A DNA stretch of 16,653 bases, from the IMG/VR virus record IMGVR_UViG_2869947659_000004; one strand, written 5' to 3'. Source of the stretch: a virus (lineage: Duplodnaviria; Heunggongvirae; Uroviricota; Caudoviricetes). The stretch's first letter is position 1, and every line of letters begins with the position of its first letter. The position numbers and the translations under genes were made by a program. This document shows, in pieces, positions 4,160 to 16,653 of this stretch. The notes beneath the pieces are model-generated. The model made no database searches, was not told where the DNA came from, and was given only the letters and a program-made list of their open reading frames with translations.

Positions 4160-4558
4160 CTAGTTAATACACTGAGTGCGGATATATTCCTGCGCCCCTT
4201 CCAGTTGCTTCTGCATTGTCATCAACCGCTCTCTGAGGGTGAAATAATCCCGTTCAGCGGTGTCTGCCAGTCGGGGGCCGGTTGCATTATCCATTCCGGA
4301 GGTGCCGGTGGCTTCACGCACGGTACCGGAGCAGGTGGCGTTGATCCGCAGGCGCTTACGACCAGCGGCAACATCACGCTGGCGCTGCTGCATGTCAGTA
4401 ATGGTTGCGTTTGCCAGCTCCAGCTCTCTGGCTTTTTTATCGCGCTGCGCTTTGTAGGTGATGGCGTTATCACGGTAATGGTCTGTTGCCAGCCACAGCG
4501 CACCACAGACCACCAGCAGAATAACGGTAAACGCGGAAAGCATTCGGTTTATGTTCAC
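4160..4558 (-). CDS. Rz: Spanin inner-membrane subunit Rz (i-spanin)
   Basis: …HYRDNAITYKAQRDK…PRLADTAERDYFTLRERL…MQKQLEG… matches lambda Rz. The track start at 4558 is GTG overlapping the upstream stop (GTGA); an ATG at 4543 is an alternative start. Confidence 0.85.
   Translation of the reverse strand: MNINRMLSAFTVILLVVCGALWLATDHYRDNAITYKAQRDKKARELELANATITDMQQRQRDVAAGRKRLRINATCSGTVREATGTSGMDNATGPRLADTAERDYFTLRERLMTMQKQLEGAQEYIRTQCIN
4222..4374 (-). CDS. Rz1: Spanin outer-membrane lipoprotein Rz1 (o-spanin), embedded in Rz in the +1 frame
   Basis: MLPLVVSACGSTPPAPVPCVKPPAPPEWIMQPAPDWQTPLNGIISPSESG: lipobox VSAC, proline-rich, near-identical C-terminus to lambda Rz1 (…WQTPLNGIISPSERG). Confidence 0.8.
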   Translation of the reverse strand: MLPLVVSACGSTPPAPVPCVKPPAPPEWIMQPAPDWQTPLNGIISPSESG

Positions 4559-6509: not shown

Positions 6510-6616
6510 GGGATTTTCTCGCTGAAAGGGGTTGTTAAGGAGTAACGGGTTCTTCGGGTTTGCTTCCGGCTGACTGAACCGCCCCGAGTTTCCTGGAGAG
6601 TGTTTTATCTGTGAAC

Positions 6617-7507
6617 TCAGGCTGCCAGATCATCGTTTCCGATGGAAGCATAATAAGCTTTTTCTGCTTCTGCCGGAGGGATGTGGCCCAGCCTTTCCAG
6701 CAATCGTCGATTATTATACCAGTCCACCCACGTGAGTGTGGCCAGTTCCACTTCTGCACGGTTTTTCCAGCTCTTACGGTGTATTACCTCCGCTTTGTAA
6801 AGACCATTGATGCTCTCCGCCATCGCGTTGTCATACGAGTCGCCTGTACTTCCTGTTGATGCCAGTAATCCGGCTTCCTTAAGCCGCTGTGTGTAGGCCA
6901 GCGATACATACTGAGAACCTTTATCACTGTGATGGACCGTGCCGGACGGTCGACGGGCCCATAACGCCTGCTCCAGAGCATCCAGCACGAATGTCGTTTC
7001 CATGGACGATGAGACCCTCCACCCCACGATGTATCCGGCAAACACATCAATAATGAACGCCACATAGACGAAGCCCTGCCATGTGCTGACGTAAGTAAAA
7101 TCAGCCACCCACAGCTGGTCAGGTCGTTCTGCCACGAACTGACGGTTTACGCGGTCGCCTGCGGCAACGGCTTTCCGGCTGATGGTCGTACGGACCTTTT
7201 TACCCCGGAGAACGCCGGCAAGTCCCATAACCGCCATGAGACGTGCCACAGTGCATCTGGCCACTCTGATACCTTCCCGTAACAACTGACGCCAGACTTT
7301 ACGCACACCGTATACCTGATGATTCCCATCGTATACGCGCAGTATCTCTTTCTTCAGCCAGTCATCGCGCTGCGCACGGGCACTGCGTTTATCAGGATGA
7401 TGTCGCTGTTGCTGACAGTGGTAATACGTTGACGGGGCAATATGTAGTTCACTGCATACCGGTCCGACCCCGTACAGCTTACGCAGCTTATCCAGCAGTG
7501 GCATCAC
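6617..7507 (-). CDS. IS3-family transposase OrfB (DDE integrase core)
   Basis: Same translation as 1..888 (+); overlaps orfA by 4 nt, consistent with an OrfAB frameshift fusion. Confidence 0.9.
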
Positions 7508-7821
7508 TGGCGGTCGAACTCCGCCTTCGCAAAATAAGCGGAAGCCTGGCGAAGGATATCGTTACTGCGGCGCAGTTCACGATTTTCACGTTCCAGCTCT
7601 TTCAGACGCTGACGTTCAGCGGTGGTGAGCCCGCCATCACCGCCTCCGGTATCCCGCTCATGCTGGCGTACCCAGACACGCAGAGTCTCCGGTGTACAGC
7701 CAATCTTTGGGGCAATGGAACAAATTGCCGCCCACTGTGAGTCATATTCGCCCTGACTTTCCAGAACCATACGAATCGCCCTCTGACGGACTTCGGGGGA
7801 AAAACGAGTATTTTTAGTCAT
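7504..7821 (-). CDS. IS3-family transposase OrfA (HTH)
   Basis: [57 protein letters not shown]…; 54-nt leader after the left terminal repeat. Confidence 0.9.
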
Positions 7822-7875
7822 CCTGTTTACCTCTTTCTCAGGGAGTTTAGTCTCCAGGATTCCCGGGGCGGTTCA

Positions 7876-8021: not shown

Positions 8022-8160
8022 AATTTCTTACCGTTATGGTTGAAAATGAGAATTGTTTTCATTTAAAAAACCAATGTACGAAAGCATCTTTTCTTTACAT
8101 TCTCCATTGGGATTACCTCCGCCAGCTTCCATTCCTGCCGCTGGCGGCTTTTTTTAGCAA

Positions 8161-8659
8161 TTATGCGGCTGCTCCAGCTTTGTTTGCTTTAACTTCCACC
8201 GTATCAATAAGTACAGGGTAGGTTTCTGCACTACCTGTAATATCCGTAATGACAAACCTGTTGAGTCCATTAGCAGTATTGGCCCATTTCACCAGGTCAA
8301 ACGCCTGTCCATCCACACCATCAAGCACCGGAGTAACATTAATGCTGTTACTGCCCTTAAATTTAAATGCAAGCGTATGCCAGTCATGGTCGAATGCGCC
8401 AAACGTGCCAAGTTCTTTTTGTTGATTAACTGTATGATGGTATGCAACATTAATACTGGCTTTATCTGTCTGGACAAAGAAAGAACTCAGATGGCCTTCA
8501 CCACCCTCACCCGGCCATTCCGCTATTCGCCAGTACAAACCAAAGGCATACTTGTTTCTGGTTGTCTCAAGATTGACGTTTTCGGGGATTTTAAACCGGA
8601 CAGCAATTTCCCCGCCTTTTTCCAGTAAAAGTTTTGCCTTGTCTGCAGCAATATCACAG
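8161..8659 (-). pseudogene. nanS-p-like sialate O-acetylesterase, C-terminal segment (split by IS600)
   Basis: Frame continues exactly from 9924..11293 once IS600 and one copy of its target-site duplication are removed; the 174-aa track ORF starts inside IS600. Confidence 0.75.
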
Positions 8660-8723
8660 TGAGGTAGCCTGAGTTTAACGGACACTCCTTCCTGAAATAG
8701 AATGGCATCAGAAGGAGCTAATA

Positions 8724-9026
8724 ATGAGCAGAAAAAACCAACGTTACTCTAAAGAGTTCAAAGCCGAAGCTGTCAGAACGGTTCTTGAAAATCAACTTTC
8801 GATCAGTGAAGGCGCTTCCCGATTATCCCTTCCTGAAGGCACTTTAGGACAATGGGTTACCGCCGCCAGAAAAGGGCTCGGTACTCCTGGTTCCCGCACG
8901 GTGGCTGAACTGGAATCTGAAATTCTGCAACTGCGTAAGGCGTTAAATGAAGCTCGCCTTGAGCGAGATATATTAAAAAAAGCAACAGCGTATTTTGCAC
9001 AGGAGTCGCTGAAAAATACGCGTTAA
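8724..9026 (+). CDS. IS600 transposase OrfA
   Basis: MSRKNQRYSKEFKAEAVRTVLENQLSISEGASRLSL…; HTH plus leucine zipper typical of IS3-family OrfA. Confidence 0.9.
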   Translation: MSRKNQRYSKEFKAEAVRTVLENQLSISEGASRLSLPEGTLGQWVTAARKGLGTPGSRTVAELESEILQLRKALNEARLERDILKKATAYFAQESLKNTR

Positions 9027-9061
9027 TCGAACAATGGCGACAACAATTTCCCATTGAAGCG

Positions 9062-9880
9062 ATGTGTCAGGTATTTGGTGTATCCAGGAGCGGTTATTAC
9101 AACTGGGTACAGCATGAACCCTCAGACAGAAAACAAAGTGATGAGCGGCTAAAACTGGAGATTAAGGTGGCACATATCCGCACTCGCGAAACATATGGAA
9201 CCCGGCGGCTCCAGACGGAGCTGGCAGAGAATGGCATCATCGTTGGTCGTGACCGACTGGCACGTCTTCGTAAGGAGCTAAGGCTACGCTGTAAGCAGAA
9301 ACGTAAGTTCAGAGCGACTACGAACCCGAACCACAATCTGCCAGTTGCGCCAAATCTGCTGAACCAGACGTTCGCTCCTACAGCACCAAATCAGGTCTGG
9401 GTGGCGGACCTGACGTATGTTGCCACACAGGAGGGATGGTTGTACCTCGCTGGCATCAAAGATGTTTATACGTGCGAAATTGTCGGCTACGCCATGGGAG
9501 AGCGCATGACAAAAGAGCTGACAGGTAAAGCCCTGTTTATGGCGCTCAGGAGCCAGCGCCCACCTGCCGGGCTAATCCACCACTCTGATCGAGGTTCACA
9601 GTACTGCGCATACGATTACCGGGTCATACAGGAGCAGTCTGGTCTGAAAACATCAATGTCGCGTAAAGGTCACTGTTACGACAACGCTCCGATGGAAAGC
9701 TTCTGGGGAACGCTGAAAAATGAGAGCCTGAGCCACTATCGTTTTAATAACCGGGATGAAGCCATCTCAGTAATACGGGAATACATTGAGATTTTCTACA
9801 ATCGTCAGCGTCGTCACTCTCGTCTGGGGAATATCTCCCCGGCAGCCTTCAGGGAAAAATATCATCAGATGGCTGCTTAA
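9062..9880 (+). CDS. IS600 transposase OrfB (DDE)
   Basis: 272 aa with the IS3-family integrase core (…IHHSDRGSQY…, …CYDNAPMESFWG…). Confidence 0.9.
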   Translation: MCQVFGVSRSGYYNWVQHEPSDRKQSDERLKLEIKVAHIRTRETYGTRRLQTELAENGIIVGRDRLARLRKELRLRCKQKRKFRATTNPNHNLPVAPNLLNQTFAPTAPNQVWVADLTYVATQEGWLYLAGIKDVYTCEIVGYAMGERMTKELTGKALFMALRSQRPPAGLIHHSDRGSQYCAYDYRVIQEQSGLKTSMSRKGHCYDNAPMESFWGTLKNESLSHYRFNNRDEAISVIREYIEIFYNRQRRHSRLGNISPAAFREKYHQMAA

Positions 9881-9923
9881 AAAAAGAACAAATGGTAGTG
9901 TCCGCTATTGCCAGTACACCTCA

Positions 9924-11293
9924 CAGTACATTGACCAGGATTTCGCGCTGTTATTTTTCTCAATTCGCAGAGCTTTATTGCCGCTGTCATCAACCAGTGT
10001 GCGTCTGCCATACATACCGTCCCAGCCATAAGGTTTCAGCTGATTGTCTGTAGCTTTTTTGGCATCGTAAAAAATTACAGACTCTGAGGTGGTAACCGGC
10101 CTGTCTGGAACAACCACCCCGGCAGTACCATTAACAAACGCAGAAGACTTACCCGCGCAGCTCAGAATCGCCGTTGCCAGACGGTCGGAAATAATCCCAC
10201 GGCGAGCCCATGAACTGAAATGGCTCGCCCTGTCCTGTGACGTCCAGGTGGCTGAGCTGTCACGCCATTTCGAACCGTAATAACCGATACCCGGAATGTC
10301 CGGGTCTTCTTCCGGTTTGTTCGTCGGCACATTCACCCCGTTCTCATCGGTCATGAACGGTACGAAATGGATATTCTTTTCCGTTTTATTTTTATAGCTG
10401 CCGTACACCGTCTGGTACGTGGATTCGTTCTTCTGCTTCCAGAAATACGTCGTGTCCCCGCATATCCAGGGAACACCGCCAGCAGAGCCACCGACGCACT
10501 GGCCTGCCATATCCGCCAGGTCTGCACGGAATTTATCAACCAGCGCACCAAACTGTGCGGCATGATTTGCCGGCGTACCGCCAAAATCAAATTCCCCCTG
10601 CATCCACACCACGGCAAACAGCACATTTTTCGGGTTCTTCTCCAGTGCCGCTTTTGTTCGACCGATAAGGTCCTTATACAGCGGCTTGTCCACACCCCAG
10701 CGGGTTGAATTCTCCGAGGCACCACTCGCGTCACTGTATGTGCCATCAGCTCCGGTGGTGAACGCTGAACCACCACGACAGCACGGAACCAGCAGAATGC
10801 CCGCATTCGCCGGTATAAACGGCAGCAGTTTTTTGGCGATATGCAGCCCCTGCCCCACGGTTCCGTACTGCCCCTTTGACAGGTCCGCTTTCGGATGGTT
10901 AAGACGGCTCATGTCCTGCACATCATGCAGACAATGGTCCGCCGGAATGATGTCGTTATATTTGCATGCTGCACCGCCCGGTGTCACCGTACTGCGACGC
11001 GCCAGTTGCTTAATACGCGGGTCCGGACGGTCATATGTCCCCGGCAGCGGAAGGCCTTCACCATACGACATGCCGTTTGACTGCCCTGCCAGAACCACAA
11101 CAAAGTAATACTCCGGGTCGCTGGTGGCGCTGATTACTGCACCTTCTGCTGCAATCGCCTGCATCAGAGTATAAGGGGTTATGGCCACCGGACTACCAAA
11201 CGGCTGCCAGCCCTCTTTCAGTTTATGTGTCAGCTTTTCCGCAAGATCTGACGGCGACGCCGCCCTGACAACATCATAGTGTTTAAAAGCCAT
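9924..11293 (-). pseudogene. nanS-p-like sialate O-acetylesterase (prophage NanS-p / SASA-SGNH hydrolase), N-terminal 456 codons
   Basis: N-terminal prophage-type domain followed by the SGNH/SASA motif VVVLAGQSNGMSYGEG. Located between the tRNA cluster and the lysis cassette, as nanS-p is in Stx-type prophages. Interrupted by IS600 after codon 456. Confidence 0.75.
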
Positions 11294-11782: not shown

Positions 11783-11859
11783 TGGCGCGTTGTACTGGAT
11801 TCGAACCAGTGACCGATTGCTTAGAAGGCAATTGCTCTGTCCGGCTGAGCTAACAACGC
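11783..11859 (-). tRNA. tRNA-Arg (anticodon UCU)
   Basis: Cloverleaf read by hand: acceptor GCGTTGT/ACAACGC, anticodon loop CTTCTAA, T-arm ACTGG-TTCGAAT-CCAGT, encoded CCA. Confidence 0.85.
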
Positions 11860-11872
11860 ATGATGCAGATAA

Positions 11873-11949
11873 TGGACCGCCATCGGGGACTTGAACCCCG
11901 CGCAGCCAGCTTCGAAGGCTGGCGCTCTTTCCTGATGAGCTAATGGCGG
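11873..11949 (-). tRNA. tRNA-Arg (anticodon UCG)
   Basis: Acceptor CCGCCAT/ATGGCGG, anticodon loop CTTCGAA, T-arm CGGGG-TTCAAGT-CCCCG, encoded CCA. Confidence 0.8.
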
Positions 11950-11956
11950 TATGTGA

Positions 11957-12032
11957 TGGTGGCCCTTGCTGGATTTGCACCAGCGACCTGGCGATTATGA
12001 GTCGCTCGCTCTCACCACTGAGCTAAAGGGCC
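11957..12032 (-). tRNA. tRNA with CAU anticodon (Ile2/Met type, ileZ-like)
   Basis: Acceptor GGCCCTT/AAGGGCC, anticodon loop CTCATAA, T-arm GCTGG-TGCAAAT-CCAGC, encoded CCA. First of three in the order CAU / Arg / Arg, as in the ileZ-argN-argO cluster of Stx-type phages. Confidence 0.8.
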
Positions 12033-12072: not shown

Positions 12073-13104
12073 TCATCCGTTCTGGCTGACTAAATCCTGT
12101 ACTTCCCGAACCGTCTGCTCAAAACGTTCAGTCTCCAGCTCAACGCCAATTGCACGACGCCCGAGCGCCAGTGCCGCTTTCACTGTCGAACCCGACCCCA
12201 TGAAAAAATCTGCAATCAGGTCACCCGGACGACTGCTAGCGCTGATTATCTGCTGCAGCATTTCTGCCGGTTTTTCGCACGGATGTTTCCCGGGATAGAA
12301 CTGCACCGGTTTATGCGTCCACACATCGGTATACGGCACCTGCACCGTCACGCCAAAATACCGCCGCAGATGTTTATATTCACTCAGCAGCTCCGCATAC
12401 TGCCGGTTCAGTGAGGTATACGTATCCACCAGCTGGTGGTGGAGCTTTTCCAGTTCACCACGCCGATGCTTCTCTTCTGCCACCCGGGCAAACAGCGCCT
12501 GTAATTTCAGATAATCGCTTTCATTCGGCAACTGCCACTGACTGGCACTGAACCAGTGCGACACCATGTTTTTCTTTCCTGTGGCATCTGCAATCTGTTT
12601 TGCCGTTATCCCCAGGGCAGCTCGCGCATCACGAAAGTAAGAAATCAGCGGGGCCATCACATGCTGTTTCAGTGCACTGCCCTTCACCGCATACCCGGCA
12701 TCTTTCGGACGATACGGCCCCTGATAATGTTCCGCGAACAGAATGCGCTCTGTGGCGGGGAAATACGCCCGCAGGCTTTCCTTGTTGCATCCGTTCCAGC
12801 GTCCGGACGGCTTCGCCCAGATAATATGGTTCAGCACACTGAAGCGTTCACGCATCATGATTTCGATATCAGATGCCAGGCGATGACCACAGAACAGGTA
12901 AAGACTTCCGGCAGGTTTCAGCACCCGCCAGAACTGCGCCAGACACTGGTCCAGCCACTTCAGGTAATCATCGTCGCCCTTCCACTGGTTATCCCAGCCC
13001 TCAGGCTTCACTTTAAAGTACGGCGGGTCCGTGACTATCAGGTCAACAGAATTTTCGGGTAACGACCAGATAAATTCCAGGCAGTCGGCGGGTAATGACT
13101 CCAA
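12073..13104 (-). CDS. DNA methyltransferase, beta-class (N6-adenine or N4-cytosine; motif IV DPPY before motif I FxGSGST); 5' end abuts IS1
   Basis: …SVDLIVTDPPYF… near the N-terminus and …DFFMGSGSTV… near the C-terminus. The first 4 to 5 codons (MESLP) lie inside the IS1 terminal repeat, so the native start was probably lost. Confidence 0.85.
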   Translation of the reverse strand: MESLPADCLEFIWSLPENSVDLIVTDPPYFKVKPEGWDNQWKGDDDYLKWLDQCLAQFWRVLKPAGSLYLFCGHRLASDIEIMMRERFSVLNHIIWAKPSGRWNGCNKESLRAYFPATERILFAEHYQGPYRPKDAGYAVKGSALKQHVMAPLISYFRDARAALGITAKQIADATGKKNMVSHWFSASQWQLPNESDYLKLQALFARVAEEKHRRGELEKLHHQLVDTYTSLNRQYAELLSEYKHLRRYFGVTVQVPYTDVWTHKPVQFYPGKHPCEKPAEMLQQIISASSRPGDLIADFFMGSGSTVKAALALGRRAIGVELETERFEQTVREVQDLVSQNG

Positions 13105-13105
13105 C

Positions 13106-13501
13106 TTACTGATAGTGTTTTATGTTCAGATAATACCCGATGACCTTGTCATGCAGCTCCACCGATTTTGAGAACGACAGTGACTTCCGTCCCAGCCTTG
13201 CCAGATGTTGTCTCAGATTCAGATTATGTCGCTCAATGCGCTGAGTGTAACGCTTGCTGATAACGTGCAGCTTTCCCTTCAGGCGTGATTCATACAGCGG
13301 CCAGCCATCCGTCATCCATACCACGACCTCAAAGGCCGACAGCAGGCTCAGAAGACGCTCCAGTGTGGCCAGAGTGCGTTCACCGAAGACGTGCGCCACA
13401 ACCGTCCTCCGTATCCTGTCATACGCGTAAAACAGCCAGCGCTGACGTGATTTAGCACCGACGTAGCCCCACTGTTCGTCCATTTCAGCGCAGACAATCA
13501 C
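13106..13501 (-). CDS. insB: IS1 InsB
   Basis: [28 protein letters not shown]… is the characteristic InsB sequence. Confidence 0.95.
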
Positions 13502-13527
13502 ATCACTGCCCGGTTATATGCGCGAGG

Positions 13528-13803
13528 TTACCGACTGCGGCCTGAGTTTTTTAAGTGACGTAAAACCGTGTTGAGGCCAACGCCCATAATGCGTGCACTG
13601 GCGCGACATCCGACGCCATTCATGGCCATATCAATGATTTTCTGGTGCGTACCGGGCTGAGAGGCGGTGTAAGTGAACTGTAGTTGCCATGTTTTACGGC
13701 AATGAGAGCAGAGATAGCGCTGATGTCCGGCAGTGCTTTTGCCGTTACGCACCACGCCTTCAGTAGCGGAGCAGGAAGGACATCTGATGGAAATGGAAGC
13801 CAC
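13528..13803 (-). CDS. insA: IS1 InsA
   Basis: [43 protein letters not shown]… is the characteristic InsA sequence. Confidence 0.95.
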
Positions 13804-13858
13804 GCAAGCACCTTAAAATCACCATCATACACTAAATCAGTAAGTTGGCAGCATTACC

Positions 13859-14106
13859 CGCTCGACGAGTGGAAACCAAAACGGTTCAGTCTCCCAATAA
13901 CAAACACTACCCTGGTGAAATACGGAAAACTAGGATACATCGTTCCAAGACCACAAAAAATTCGTGGGCGTTGGCTGATAGATCGCCGAGCAGTATTTGT
14001 TGGGCCTGGTGAAACGGGAATTGCGCCGGAAATTCATACTGGCGATGATGATGCACTGAAGGAGATTTTAACTCATGTCACCGAGGCCACGAAAAAACAG
14101 CACTGA
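13859..14106 (+). pseudogene. xis: Excisionase (lambda Xis-like), start codon removed by IS1
   Basis: …PLDEWKPKRFSLPITNTTLVKYGKLGYIVPRPQKIRGRWLIDRRAV… resembles lambda Xis (…LTLQEW…VRRWVRECRIFPPPVKDGREYLF…). No start codon exists after the IS1 end, and the 3' end overlaps int as in lambda. Confidence 0.6.
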
Positions 14107-14899
14107 CGTAGCCGGTCTTTACGAAAAGTTTGATCGCAGAACTGGCAGAGTTTACTACCAGTATAAAAATCCTGTGACTGGAAAATTTCACGGACTCGGA
14201 ACAGACAAAGGTAAGGCAGAAAAAATCGCTTCCACAGCCAATCAGCGAATAGCTGCAGCAGAAGCTGAATATTTCATGCGCAAAATTGATGAAAGTCCGT
14301 CAGCAACAAAACGTCGGGGTATCAGATTAAAGGCATGGGTTGATCGATATCTGAAAATACAGGACACGCGACTGAAAAATGGAGATATTGCAGCTACAAC
14401 TCACAAAGAAAAAACTCGAATGGCTGCATACCTGGTTTCCCGTCTGGGAAACCACCCATTGAAAGAACTGGAAGTAAGAGACTTTGCATTAATACTGGAT
14501 GAGTGGCTGGATAAAGACATGGTCAGCACAGCGAGAGTAAATCGTGGATTATGGGTTGATATTTATAAAGAAGCACAGCATGCAGGGGAAGTTCCTCCTG
14601 GATGGAATCCTCCGGAGGCTACCCGTAAACCGATCCCTAAAGTAACCAGAGCCAGGCTCACCATGGAAGACTGGCAAAAAATTTACAATGCAACGCCTGA
14701 AAAACACTTTATCCGTAACGCAATGCTTCTTGCGATTGTTACTGGTCAGCGCCGTGATGACATTTGCCACATGCGTTTTTCAGATGTGTGGAACGAACAC
14801 TTGCATATCACCCAGGGAAAAACCGGAATGCGTCTGGCGTTACCGCTTACACTACGCTGTGATGCCATTGGGATAACGTTAAAAGAAGTTATTGATGGG
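14075..14899 (+). pseudogene. int: Phage integrase (tyrosine recombinase, lambda Int family), 3'-truncated by IS600
   Basis: N-terminal arm-binding and core-binding regions are present, but the ORF runs straight into the IS600 left end at 14900, so the C-terminal catalytic region including the Tyr is missing from this window. Confidence 0.85.
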
Positions 14900-15413
14900 T
14901 GAGGTAGCCTGAGTTTAACGGACACTCCTTCCTGAAATAGAATGGCATCAGAAGGAGCTAATAATGAGCAGAAAAAACCAACGTTACTCTAAAGAGTTCA
15001 AAGCCGAAGCTGTCAGAACGGTTCTTGAAAATCAACTTTCGATCAGTGAAGGCGCTTCCCGATTATCCCTTCCTGAAGGCACTTTAGGACAATGGGTTAC
15101 CGCCGCCAGAAAAGGGCTCGGTACTCCTGGTTCCCGCACGGTGGCTGAACTGGAATCTGAAATTCTGCAACTGCGTAAGGCGTTAAATGAAGCTCGCCTT
15201 GAGCGAGATATATTAAAAAAAGCAACAGCGTATTTTGCACAGGAGTCGCTGAAAAATACGCGTTAATCGAACAATGGCGACAACAATTTCCCATTGAAGC
15301 GATGTGTCAGGTATTTGGTGTATCCAGGAGCGGTTATTACAACTGGGTACAGCATGAACCCTCAGACAGAAAACAAAGTGATGAGCGGCTAAAACTGGAG
15401 ATTAAGGTGGCAC
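14900..15413 (+). mobile_element. IS600, second copy, left 514 bp only; interrupted by IS2
   Basis: Identical to 8660..9173 of the complete copy; identity stops at 15413 where the IS2 terminal repeat begins. Confidence 0.9.
14964..15266 (+). CDS. IS600 transposase OrfA (copy 2)
   Basis: Identical 100-aa translation to 8724..9026. Confidence 0.9.
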   Translation: MSRKNQRYSKEFKAEAVRTVLENQLSISEGASRLSLPEGTLGQWVTAARKGLGTPGSRTVAELESEILQLRKALNEARLERDILKKATAYFAQESLKNTR

Positions 15414-15424
15414 TGGATTTGCCC

Positions 15425-16330
15425 CTATATTTCCAGACATCTGTTATCACTTAACCCATTACAAGCCCGCTGCCGCAGATATTCCCGTGGCGAGCGATAA
15501 CCCAGCGCACTATGCGGATGCCATTCGTTATAATGTTCGAACGCCTCTGCAAGGTTCTTTGCTGCCGTTAACCCGTCTGGTTTGGGCATGATACTGATGT
15601 AGTCACGCTTTATCGTTTTCACGAAGCTCTCTGCTATTCCGTTACTCTCCGGACTCCGCACCGCCGTGTTCTTCGGTTCAAGTCCCAACATCCGGGCGAA
15701 CTGGCGTGTTTCATTAGCCCGGTAGCATGAACCATTATCCGTCAGCCACTCCACTGGAGACGACGGAAGATCGTTGCCGAAGCGGCGTTCCACCGCTCCC
15801 AGCATGACGTCCTGTACTGTTTCACTGTTGAAGCCGCCGGTAGTCACCGCCCAGTGCAGTGCCTCACGATCACAGCAGTCCAGCGCGAACGTGACACGCA
15901 GTCTCTCTCCGTTATCACAGCAGAACTCGAACCCGTCAGAGCACCATCGCTGATTGCTTTCTTTCACGGCCACTCTGCCTGTATGTGCCCGTTTCGATGG
16001 CGGTACAGCAGGTTTTCGCTCAAGCAACAGCGCATTCTGGCGCATGATCCGGTAAACACGTTTGGCATTGATCGCAGGCATACCATCAAGTTCTGCCTGT
16101 CTGCGAAGCAGCGCCCATACCCGACGATAACCATACGTGGGCAGCTCTCCGATAACATGGTGTATACGGAGAAGCACATCCGTATCATCAGTGTGACGAC
16201 TGCGGCGGCCATCCATCCAGTCATCGGTTCGTCTGAGAATGACGTGCAACTGCGCACGCGACACCCGGAGACAACGGCTGACTAAGCTTACTCCCCATCC
16301 CCGGGCAATAAGGGCGCGTGCGCTATCCAC
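15425..16330 (-). CDS. insD: IS2 transposase InsD (OrfB)
   Basis: [43 protein letters not shown]…, 301 aa. Confidence 0.95.
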
Positions 16331-16653
16331 TTTTTTGCCCGTCCATATTCAACGGCTTCTTTGAGGAGTTCATTTTCCATCGTTTTCTTGCCGAGCAGGC
16401 GCTGGAGTTCTTTAATCTGCTTCATGGCGGCAGCAAGTTCAGAGGCAGGAACAACCTGTTCTCCGGCGGCCACAGCAGTAAGACTTCCTTCCTGGTATTG
16501 CTTACGCCAGAGAAATAACTGGCTGGCTGCTACACCATGTTGCCGGGCAACGAGGGAGACCGTCATCCCCGGTTCAAAGCTCTGCTGAACAATTGCGATC
16601 TTTTCCTGTGTGGTACGCCGTCTGCGTTTCTCCGGCCCTAAGACATCAATCAT
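16288..16653 (-). CDS. insC: IS2 InsC (OrfA)
   Basis: [56 protein letters not shown]…; the start codon is at the last three bases of the window. Confidence 0.95.

Follow-up and report, generated by a model that had tools for sequence, protein, structure and literature searches.

An IS600 insertion splits a prophage-borne nanS-p esterase gene in a Shigella prophage remnant

The viral record IMGVR_UViG_2869947659_000004 (Caudoviricetes) comprises 16,653 nucleotides, and this whole stretch, hereafter the window, matches the chromosome CP026766.1 (assembly GCA_002949475.1, a Shigella) with 0 mismatches over its 16,653 positions. The window contains a single nanS-p gene, a prophage gene for a sialate O-acetylesterase, which is split by a full-length copy of the insertion sequence (IS) IS600, and whose two halves, once rejoined in silico, are identical to intact genes of other enterobacterial assemblies. 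The same insertion is present in Shigella flexneri 1485-80, and IS600 very probably entered the gene in an ancestor common to this strain and the CP026766.1 strain. The anatomy of the locus, the exact restoration of the gene, the identity of the element and its sharing by two strains are read directly from the sequences.

The interrupted gene and its reconstruction

The nanS-p gene lies on the minus strand, with an ATG at 11293, a GGAGG Shine–Dalgarno sequence 5 nt upstream of this ATG, and a TAA stop at 8161-8163, and it is interrupted by IS600 at codons 456/457. The features of the locus are as follows.

9927..11293, minus strand: 5' part of nanS-p, codons 1-455 and a further two bases, from codon 456; DUF1737, the esterase domain, and ~46 residues at the start of the lectin-like C-terminal domain
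9924..9926, strand not applicable: target-site duplication copy CAG (CTG in gene orientation), by sequence reading
8660..9923, plus strand: IS600, full length, 1264 bp, TG...CA ends with imperfect terminal inverted repeats, antisense to nanS-p
8657..8659, strand not applicable: target-site duplication copy CAG, by sequence reading
8161..8659, minus strand: 3' part of nanS-p, the third base of codon 456, then codons 457-621 and the stop; nearly all of the DUF6645 lectin-like jelly-roll domain
9905..11293, minus strand: truncated open reading frame (ORF) at present, 462 aa, of which 457 residues are native, followed by EVYWQ and a stop from the right end of IS600
8724..9026, plus strand: IS600 orfA, 100 aa, HTH_Tnp_1
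9062..9880, plus strand: IS600 orfB, 272 aa, rve integrase core (DDE); NCBIfam transpos_IS3, 332.8 bits

Excision of 8660-9926 in silico yields a single ORF of 1866 nt, or 621 codons. As the CAG duplication takes up the third base of codon 456 and the opening two of codon 457, the element resides inside codon 457 and not at a codon boundary. A flanking match of 3 bp would by itself be expected by chance with a frequency of 1/64, and what validates the duplication is that a known gene is restored exactly. Over 1866/1866 nt the rejoined DNA agrees with the intact genes of two other enterobacterial assemblies (L009 and L011), and it differs from four further intact genes by 1-2 nt. The reconstructed 621-aa protein agrees exactly with a catalogued one (P0031, 'SASA family carbohydrate esterase [Enterobacteriaceae]') that is found on 191 contigs. 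The alignment with the intact esterases of E. coli O104:H4 and FORC_069 is colinear across the junction (...SWSMYCDIAADK...). Taken together, these sequence matches argue decisively, and far beyond chance, that the reconstruction is real.

An earlier note on this DNA, made from the sequence alone, had placed IS600 at 8660..9923, with a CAG duplication, and had regarded the two flanking pieces as halves of one nanS-p gene; the placement is confirmed to the base, and the colinear alignment bears out the second claim. Its count of 621 codons is likewise reproduced by excision, but the division into 456 upstream and 165 downstream codons was a rounded figure, with the element in fact lying inside codon 457. 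Its description of the event as the loss of one copy presupposes further copies, and the window holds one nanS-p.

The IS600 element

The element at 8660-9923 begins with TGAGGTAGCC and ends with GTACACCTCA, and it is 99.8% identical over positions 1-1264 to E. coli genome elements annotated as 'IS3-like element IS600 family transposase'. A slippery A-run at ~8975-8982 allows a -1 frameshift from orfA into orfB, whose frame is open upstream as far as the A-run, and such a -1 frameshift at an A-run is the usual arrangement in the IS3 family. The assignment to IS600 is based on near-identity at full length, on orfA and orfB with their slippery site, on the TG...CA inverted repeats, and on the 3-bp duplication. 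The IS600 of Shigella and enteroinvasive E. coli has the same length of 1264 bp, is 99.8% identical, and shows the same orfA/orfB frameshift site and 3-bp duplication, with no notable difference in the copy described here. Both ORFs of the copy are open, and it is apparently transposition-competent. IS600 is one of five IS that have expanded in all Shigella species (PMC7373316).

A second IS600 copy is present at 14900-15413 of the window and shows 100% identity to the nanS-p copy over its first 514 bp. It sits in the phage integrase gene (14075-14902; 275 aa vs an intact 368 aa in S. flexneri 1485-80), and it is itself interrupted by a nested IS2-like element at 15414-16653 (orfB 15425-16330, orfA 16288-16653).

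Domain organization and the position of the cut

In the reconstructed protein, Pfam models identify DUF1737 (PF08410) at aa 3-50 with 56.9 bits, SASA at aa 66-261 with 42.8 bits against a cut-off of 24.8, and DUF6645 (PF20350) at aa 468-579 with 99.7 bits; among NCBIfam models, none matches the reconstructed esterase. The structure of NanS (PDB 3pt5) matches aa 56-378 with an E value of 3.5e-116, the GQSN and SHF motifs being aligned, and that of the NanS-p C-terminal domain (PDB 6yp6) matches aa 411-615 with E values of 4e-42 to 6e-43. The protein is assigned to NanS-p by its NanS-like SASA/SGNH domain, its DUF1737, its lectin-like jelly-roll, and the position of its gene in a lambdoid late region.

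The lectin-like C-terminal domain is severed in the window and is joined to the rest of the protein only after the in-silico excision. The cut falls ~46 residues into the crystallized jelly-roll domain, ahead of the start of Pfam DUF6645. The 462-aa product, which is catalogued as EJZ67615.1 (Shigella flexneri 1485-80), retains DUF1737 together with the NanS-like catalytic domain in its entirety, serine S72 of GQSN and histidine H358 of SHF included, and lacks roughly 160 of the ~208 residues of the lectin-like domain. The 3' piece is called by annotation pipelines as a 174-aa ORF at 8161-8685 with a GTG start within the IS end (WP_005135301.1, 'DUF6645 domain-containing protein'). Translation from this GTG was considered and rejected on reading the sequence, where the AGGAAGGA motif abuts the GTG without a spacer and the fragment contains no Met, and the orphan 3' fragment is probably untranslated. 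Fragment proteins of the split nanS-p are catalogued only under Shigella.

NanS-p enzymes de-O-acetylate 5-N-acetyl-9-O-acetylneuraminic acid (Neu5,9Ac2) and mucin glycans, with activity reported for the EDL933 and O104:H4 alleles, so that the literature agrees with the statement of the earlier note that prophage nanS-p esterases release acetate from mucin sialic acids (PMC8065619). The C-terminal domain has been described as a non-catalytic binding module (PMC10462455, PMC8065619), and a preprint reports that the catalytic domain as well as the jelly-roll contributes to activity (bioRxiv 10.64898/2026.04.10.717836).

Distribution and age of the insertion

In S. flexneri 1485-80 (AMGB01000032.1), IS600 resides at the same base, in the same orientation and with the same CTG/CAG duplication as in the window, and the gene halves show 0 differences. 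This strain does not contain at least three other IS insertions of the window, namely the IS3-family element at 6575-7875 and the IS600 and IS2 in int, and outside the IS elements roughly 0.1% of sites differ between the two sequences across the surrounding 20 kb. Because S. flexneri 1485-80 carries the nanS-p insertion without these other insertions, the nanS-p insertion is not strain-specific and is older than they are.

In six other Shigella draft assemblies (flexneri or dysenteriae), short-read contigs begin 0-3 nt from the duplication, as expected at a repeat boundary. The upstream contigs of S. boydii drafts (L021, L022) end 20 nt before the duplication, which speaks neither for nor against the same insertion there. 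Among 5426 complete E. coli genomes, not one contains the junction: the query matched either the IS part or the gene part alone and never both. The left junction has no exact match in the species-representative genome collection, where a negative is uninformative because the collection holds one genome per species.

The insertion appears to be young in that the gene halves have accumulated no substitution, and yet it is a shared lineage character, so that it could be called recent only loosely. The earlier note had taken the perfect target-site duplication as a sign of a recent event; a 3-bp duplication is nearly uninformative on age, and the better evidence of youth is the absence of nucleotide differences from intact alleles. 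Recency itself holds insofar as the gene shows no nucleotide differences, but the insertion predates several IS insertions and is common to S. flexneri 1485-80, and its presence in this second strain answers in the negative the question, raised in the same note, of whether it is strain-specific.

The prophage remnant

The order of the late region, which comprises a DNA methylase, three tRNAs, nanS-p, DUF1378, DUF826, holin, DUF1327, lysozyme, and Rz, matches that of intact relatives. Homology to these relatives ends ~41 nt inside the methylase gene, where an IS1 element begins (window ~13090). Two further features concern the region upstream of nanS-p.

~13090-13860: IS1, with insB at 13106-13501 and insA at 13528-13803
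11783-12032, minus strand: tRNA cluster of three genes (CAT 'Met', Arg-TCG, Arg-TCT) upstream of nanS-p, an arrangement shared with Stx (Shiga toxin) and other lambdoid phages

The DNA methylase gene at 12073-13104 is 5'-truncated and abutted by IS1, and is about 14 codons short of its 349-aa relatives. The remnant has neither Q nor the late promoter region nor any of the early region, and past IS1 only a truncated integrase gene is found, so that int adjoins the late region. The IS1 junction, which is common to the window and S. flexneri 1485-80, looks like an IS1-associated deletion.

The expression of nanS-p is doubtful because Q and the late promoter region have been lost to IS1. A promoter-like site is found at 12070-12042, near the tRNA cluster, and terminator-like hairpins lie between the tRNAs and nanS-p at 11768-11751, 11546-11527, and 11418-11403. 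From lambdoid biology, Q-modified polymerase would normally read through such terminators. If the IS1 deletion came first, nanS-p may already have been poorly expressed before the arrival of IS600. The two events occur in both strains. The claim that the gene was intact until the insertion stands for the ORF, but the gene may by then have been poorly expressed, IS1 having removed Q and the late promoter region.

As to stx, the 780 bp upstream of nanS-p contain only the three tRNA genes and terminator-like hairpins, and its presence in this stretch was rejected. A strong hairpin (CCGCCAGC...GCTGGCGG) followed by T7 is found on the plus strand at 8118-8157, between the nanS-p stop and DUF1378, and is directed against the minus-strand late genes. 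The Rz/Rz1 region shows a ~67-bp deletion at ~4368-4376 relative to intact relatives (L009 10356-10423), and the called lysis protein has 132 aa vs 152-157 aa elsewhere. The remnant adjoins cobB (SIR2) and potD/potC-like genes (L003 1-3331 / L004 1-5934), suggesting that the prophage integrated next to the pot operon.

Proposed course of events and alternatives

The observations are best accounted for by the entry of IS600, a member of the IS3 family, into codons 456/457 of the prophage nanS-p gene in antisense orientation, with duplication of the 3-bp target CAG. The cut separates the catalytic part of the gene from the C-terminal carbohydrate-binding domain and leaves the 462-aa ORF and an orphan 3' fragment. 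We infer that the insertion took place after or around the reduction of the prophage by the IS1-associated deletion of the early region and Q, and it would have occurred ahead of the IS3-family insertion at 6575-7875 and of the IS600 and IS2 insertions in int.

An insertion that is very recent, confined to one strain and directed into a functioning gene would be in keeping with the perfect 3-bp duplication, with rejoined halves that show zero nucleotide differences from intact alleles, with an intact IS600 that agrees with the window's second copy throughout its first 514 bp, and with the lack of the junction in each of the 5426 complete E. coli genomes. This scenario is nevertheless very improbable, since strain-specificity is largely refuted by S. 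flexneri 1485-80, which has the same insertion yet differs by several IS events and ~0.1% single-nucleotide polymorphisms; these IS differences argue against AMGB01000032.1 and CP026766.1 being one strain sequenced twice, and further Shigella drafts show contig breaks at the same base. A functioning gene is also doubtful in a late operon without Q and its promoter region and with terminator-like hairpins upstream of nanS-p. Loss or impairment of enzyme function in the split gene is plausible. One observation weighs against a single insertion in a common ancestor: the IS600 copies at nanS-p in the window (8660-9923) and in S. flexneri 1485-80 (L004 11371-12634) differ at 4/1264 positions. Three of the four differing positions are covered by the second IS600 copy of the window, and all three there match its nanS-p copy. 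IS copies within one genome are homogenized by conversion, and draft assemblies collapse IS copies. The differences between strains suggest either within-genome homogenization of IS copies or a collapsed draft consensus, while independent insertions would explain them equally well. Parallel insertions of IS600 at a preferred target, or hot spot, in the two strains would accordingly draw on these 4 differences, set against 0 in the 1866 nt of the flanking gene, and on the high activity of IS600 in Shigella (PMC7373316). Such parallelism is nonetheless highly unlikely, as base, orientation, and duplication are all alike in both strains, the two share one and the same prophage remnant and its IS1 junction at the methylase, and IS conversion within genomes and the collapse of copies in draft assemblies can account for the differences between the IS600 copies. 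IS600 exists in multiple copies in Shigella and is a classic cause of assembly errors, but its misplacement into nanS-p by an assembler deserves almost no credence: two independent assemblies resolve the junctions identically, the 3-bp duplication is clean, and short-read contigs of other strains break at exactly the same base.

A different question is whether the ancestral IS600 insertion disabled the enzyme or trimmed it, leaving a 462-aa protein with DUF1737 and esterase domains as a still active sialate O-acetylesterase without its carbohydrate-binding module. The whole region homologous to the free-standing chromosomal NanS (aa 56-378, with S72 and H358) lies upstream of the break, NanS itself has no such C-terminal domain, and the C-terminal domain is a non-catalytic binding module according to PMC10462455 and PMC8065619. 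We nevertheless consider an active trimmed enzyme unlikely, as ~78 residues (aa 379-457) of linker and partial jelly-roll are left in the 462-aa product and may misfold, the preprint assigns a contribution to activity to the jelly-roll as well as to the catalytic domain (bioRxiv 10.64898/2026.04.10.717836), and expression of the product is doubtful with Q and the late promoter region lost and terminator-like hairpins upstream. More doubtful still is a 462-aa protein that is both made from a local promoter and active; it would amount to a NanS-p that had lost a domain naturally and become fixed in a Shigella lineage, with the insertion as a clade marker.

Other insertion elements in the window

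Two IS3-family copies with TGAACCGCCCCG ends, at 1-930 and 6575-7504 (the latter part of an element at ~6575-7875), are 100% identical over 930 bp and share ~98% identity with E. coli 'IS3 family transposase' elements. They stand in inverted orientation and bracket the lysis cassette, and the bracketed segment is not inverted, judged by its collinearity with intact relatives. The inner copy, located between DUF1378 and DUF826, alters the C-terminus of DUF1378 (64 aa vs 60 aa); the element at 6575-7875 is absent from that site in S. flexneri 1485-80, whose DUF1378 is uninterrupted. An IS66-family element at 931-2907 (tnpC 1201-2793) occupies the place where the terminase genes follow in intact relatives, and the IS3-family copy at 1-930 has shortened the IS66-family tnpB to 64 aa. 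At the end that corresponds to this IS66-family element, S. flexneri 1485-80 has an IS110-family element.

Relation to known NanS-p systems

The NanS-p proteins of O104:H4 (C227-11 / 2011C-3493, WP_000874468.1) and FORC_069 (WP_000874467.1) have the same three domains as the reconstructed protein, and their genes occupy the same late-region position, after Q and before DUF1378/holin. From residue 89 to residue 621, the reconstructed protein matches that of FORC_069 without a difference and departs from that of O104:H4 at a single position, M427V. In contrast, the N-terminal ~88 residues (DUF1737 and linker) represent a different mosaic variant, 15 residues shorter than in O104:H4 and FORC_069, and the gene described here is interrupted by IS600. 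The O104:H4 NanS-p alleles have been reported to be active esterases (PMC8065619).

IS3-family insertions (IS629/IS1203, and ISEc8 in one phage) that alter the C-terminus of nanS-p are frequent in O157 Stx2a phages (PMC10462455). In the O157 Stx2a 'CTR3' / sequence 16 of the same study, an IS3-family element likewise lies in the C-terminal region of nanS-p and changes the C-terminal end. The O157 cases involve IS629/IS1203 or ISEc8 in an stx phage of a Shiga toxin-producing E. coli host, whereas the case described here involves IS600 in a remnant without stx in a Shigella host.

The phi24B protein vb_24B_21 / gp84 (PDB 6yp6) has a homologous jelly-roll (E 4e-42 to 6e-43) and the same layout of DUF1737, esterase, and lectin; its C-terminal domain is a diverged variant, and phi24B is a live phage, whereas the remnant described here cannot make a virion. 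The phi24B gp84 has been described as a processed capsid-decoration protein that is anchored by DUF1737 (2026 preprint, bioRxiv 10.64898/2026.04.10.717836). The chromosomal NanS (YjhS) of E. coli (PDB 3pt5) has a homologous catalytic domain, but it has neither a DUF1737 nor a lectin-like domain and is not prophage-borne.

Significance

The split gene is a routine instance of two phenomena that are already known, the IS-split nanS-p and the expansion of IS600 in Shigella. Reference Shigella genomes contain 229-348 IS copies and at least 199 pseudogenes, and IS-driven gene decay, as the earlier note had framed the event, is the right setting for it (PMC7373316). For annotation, the 462-aa coding sequence of the EJZ67615.1 type and WP_005135301.1 (174 aa), which are catalogued separately, are halves of one pseudogene, and the exact IS600 junction could serve as a lineage marker in Shigella typing. 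Little import extends beyond annotation. The locus adds one more data point on the IS-driven degradation of prophage cargo genes in Shigella. More speculatively, the loss would fit an intracellular pathogen that has no need for the scavenging of mucin sialic acids.

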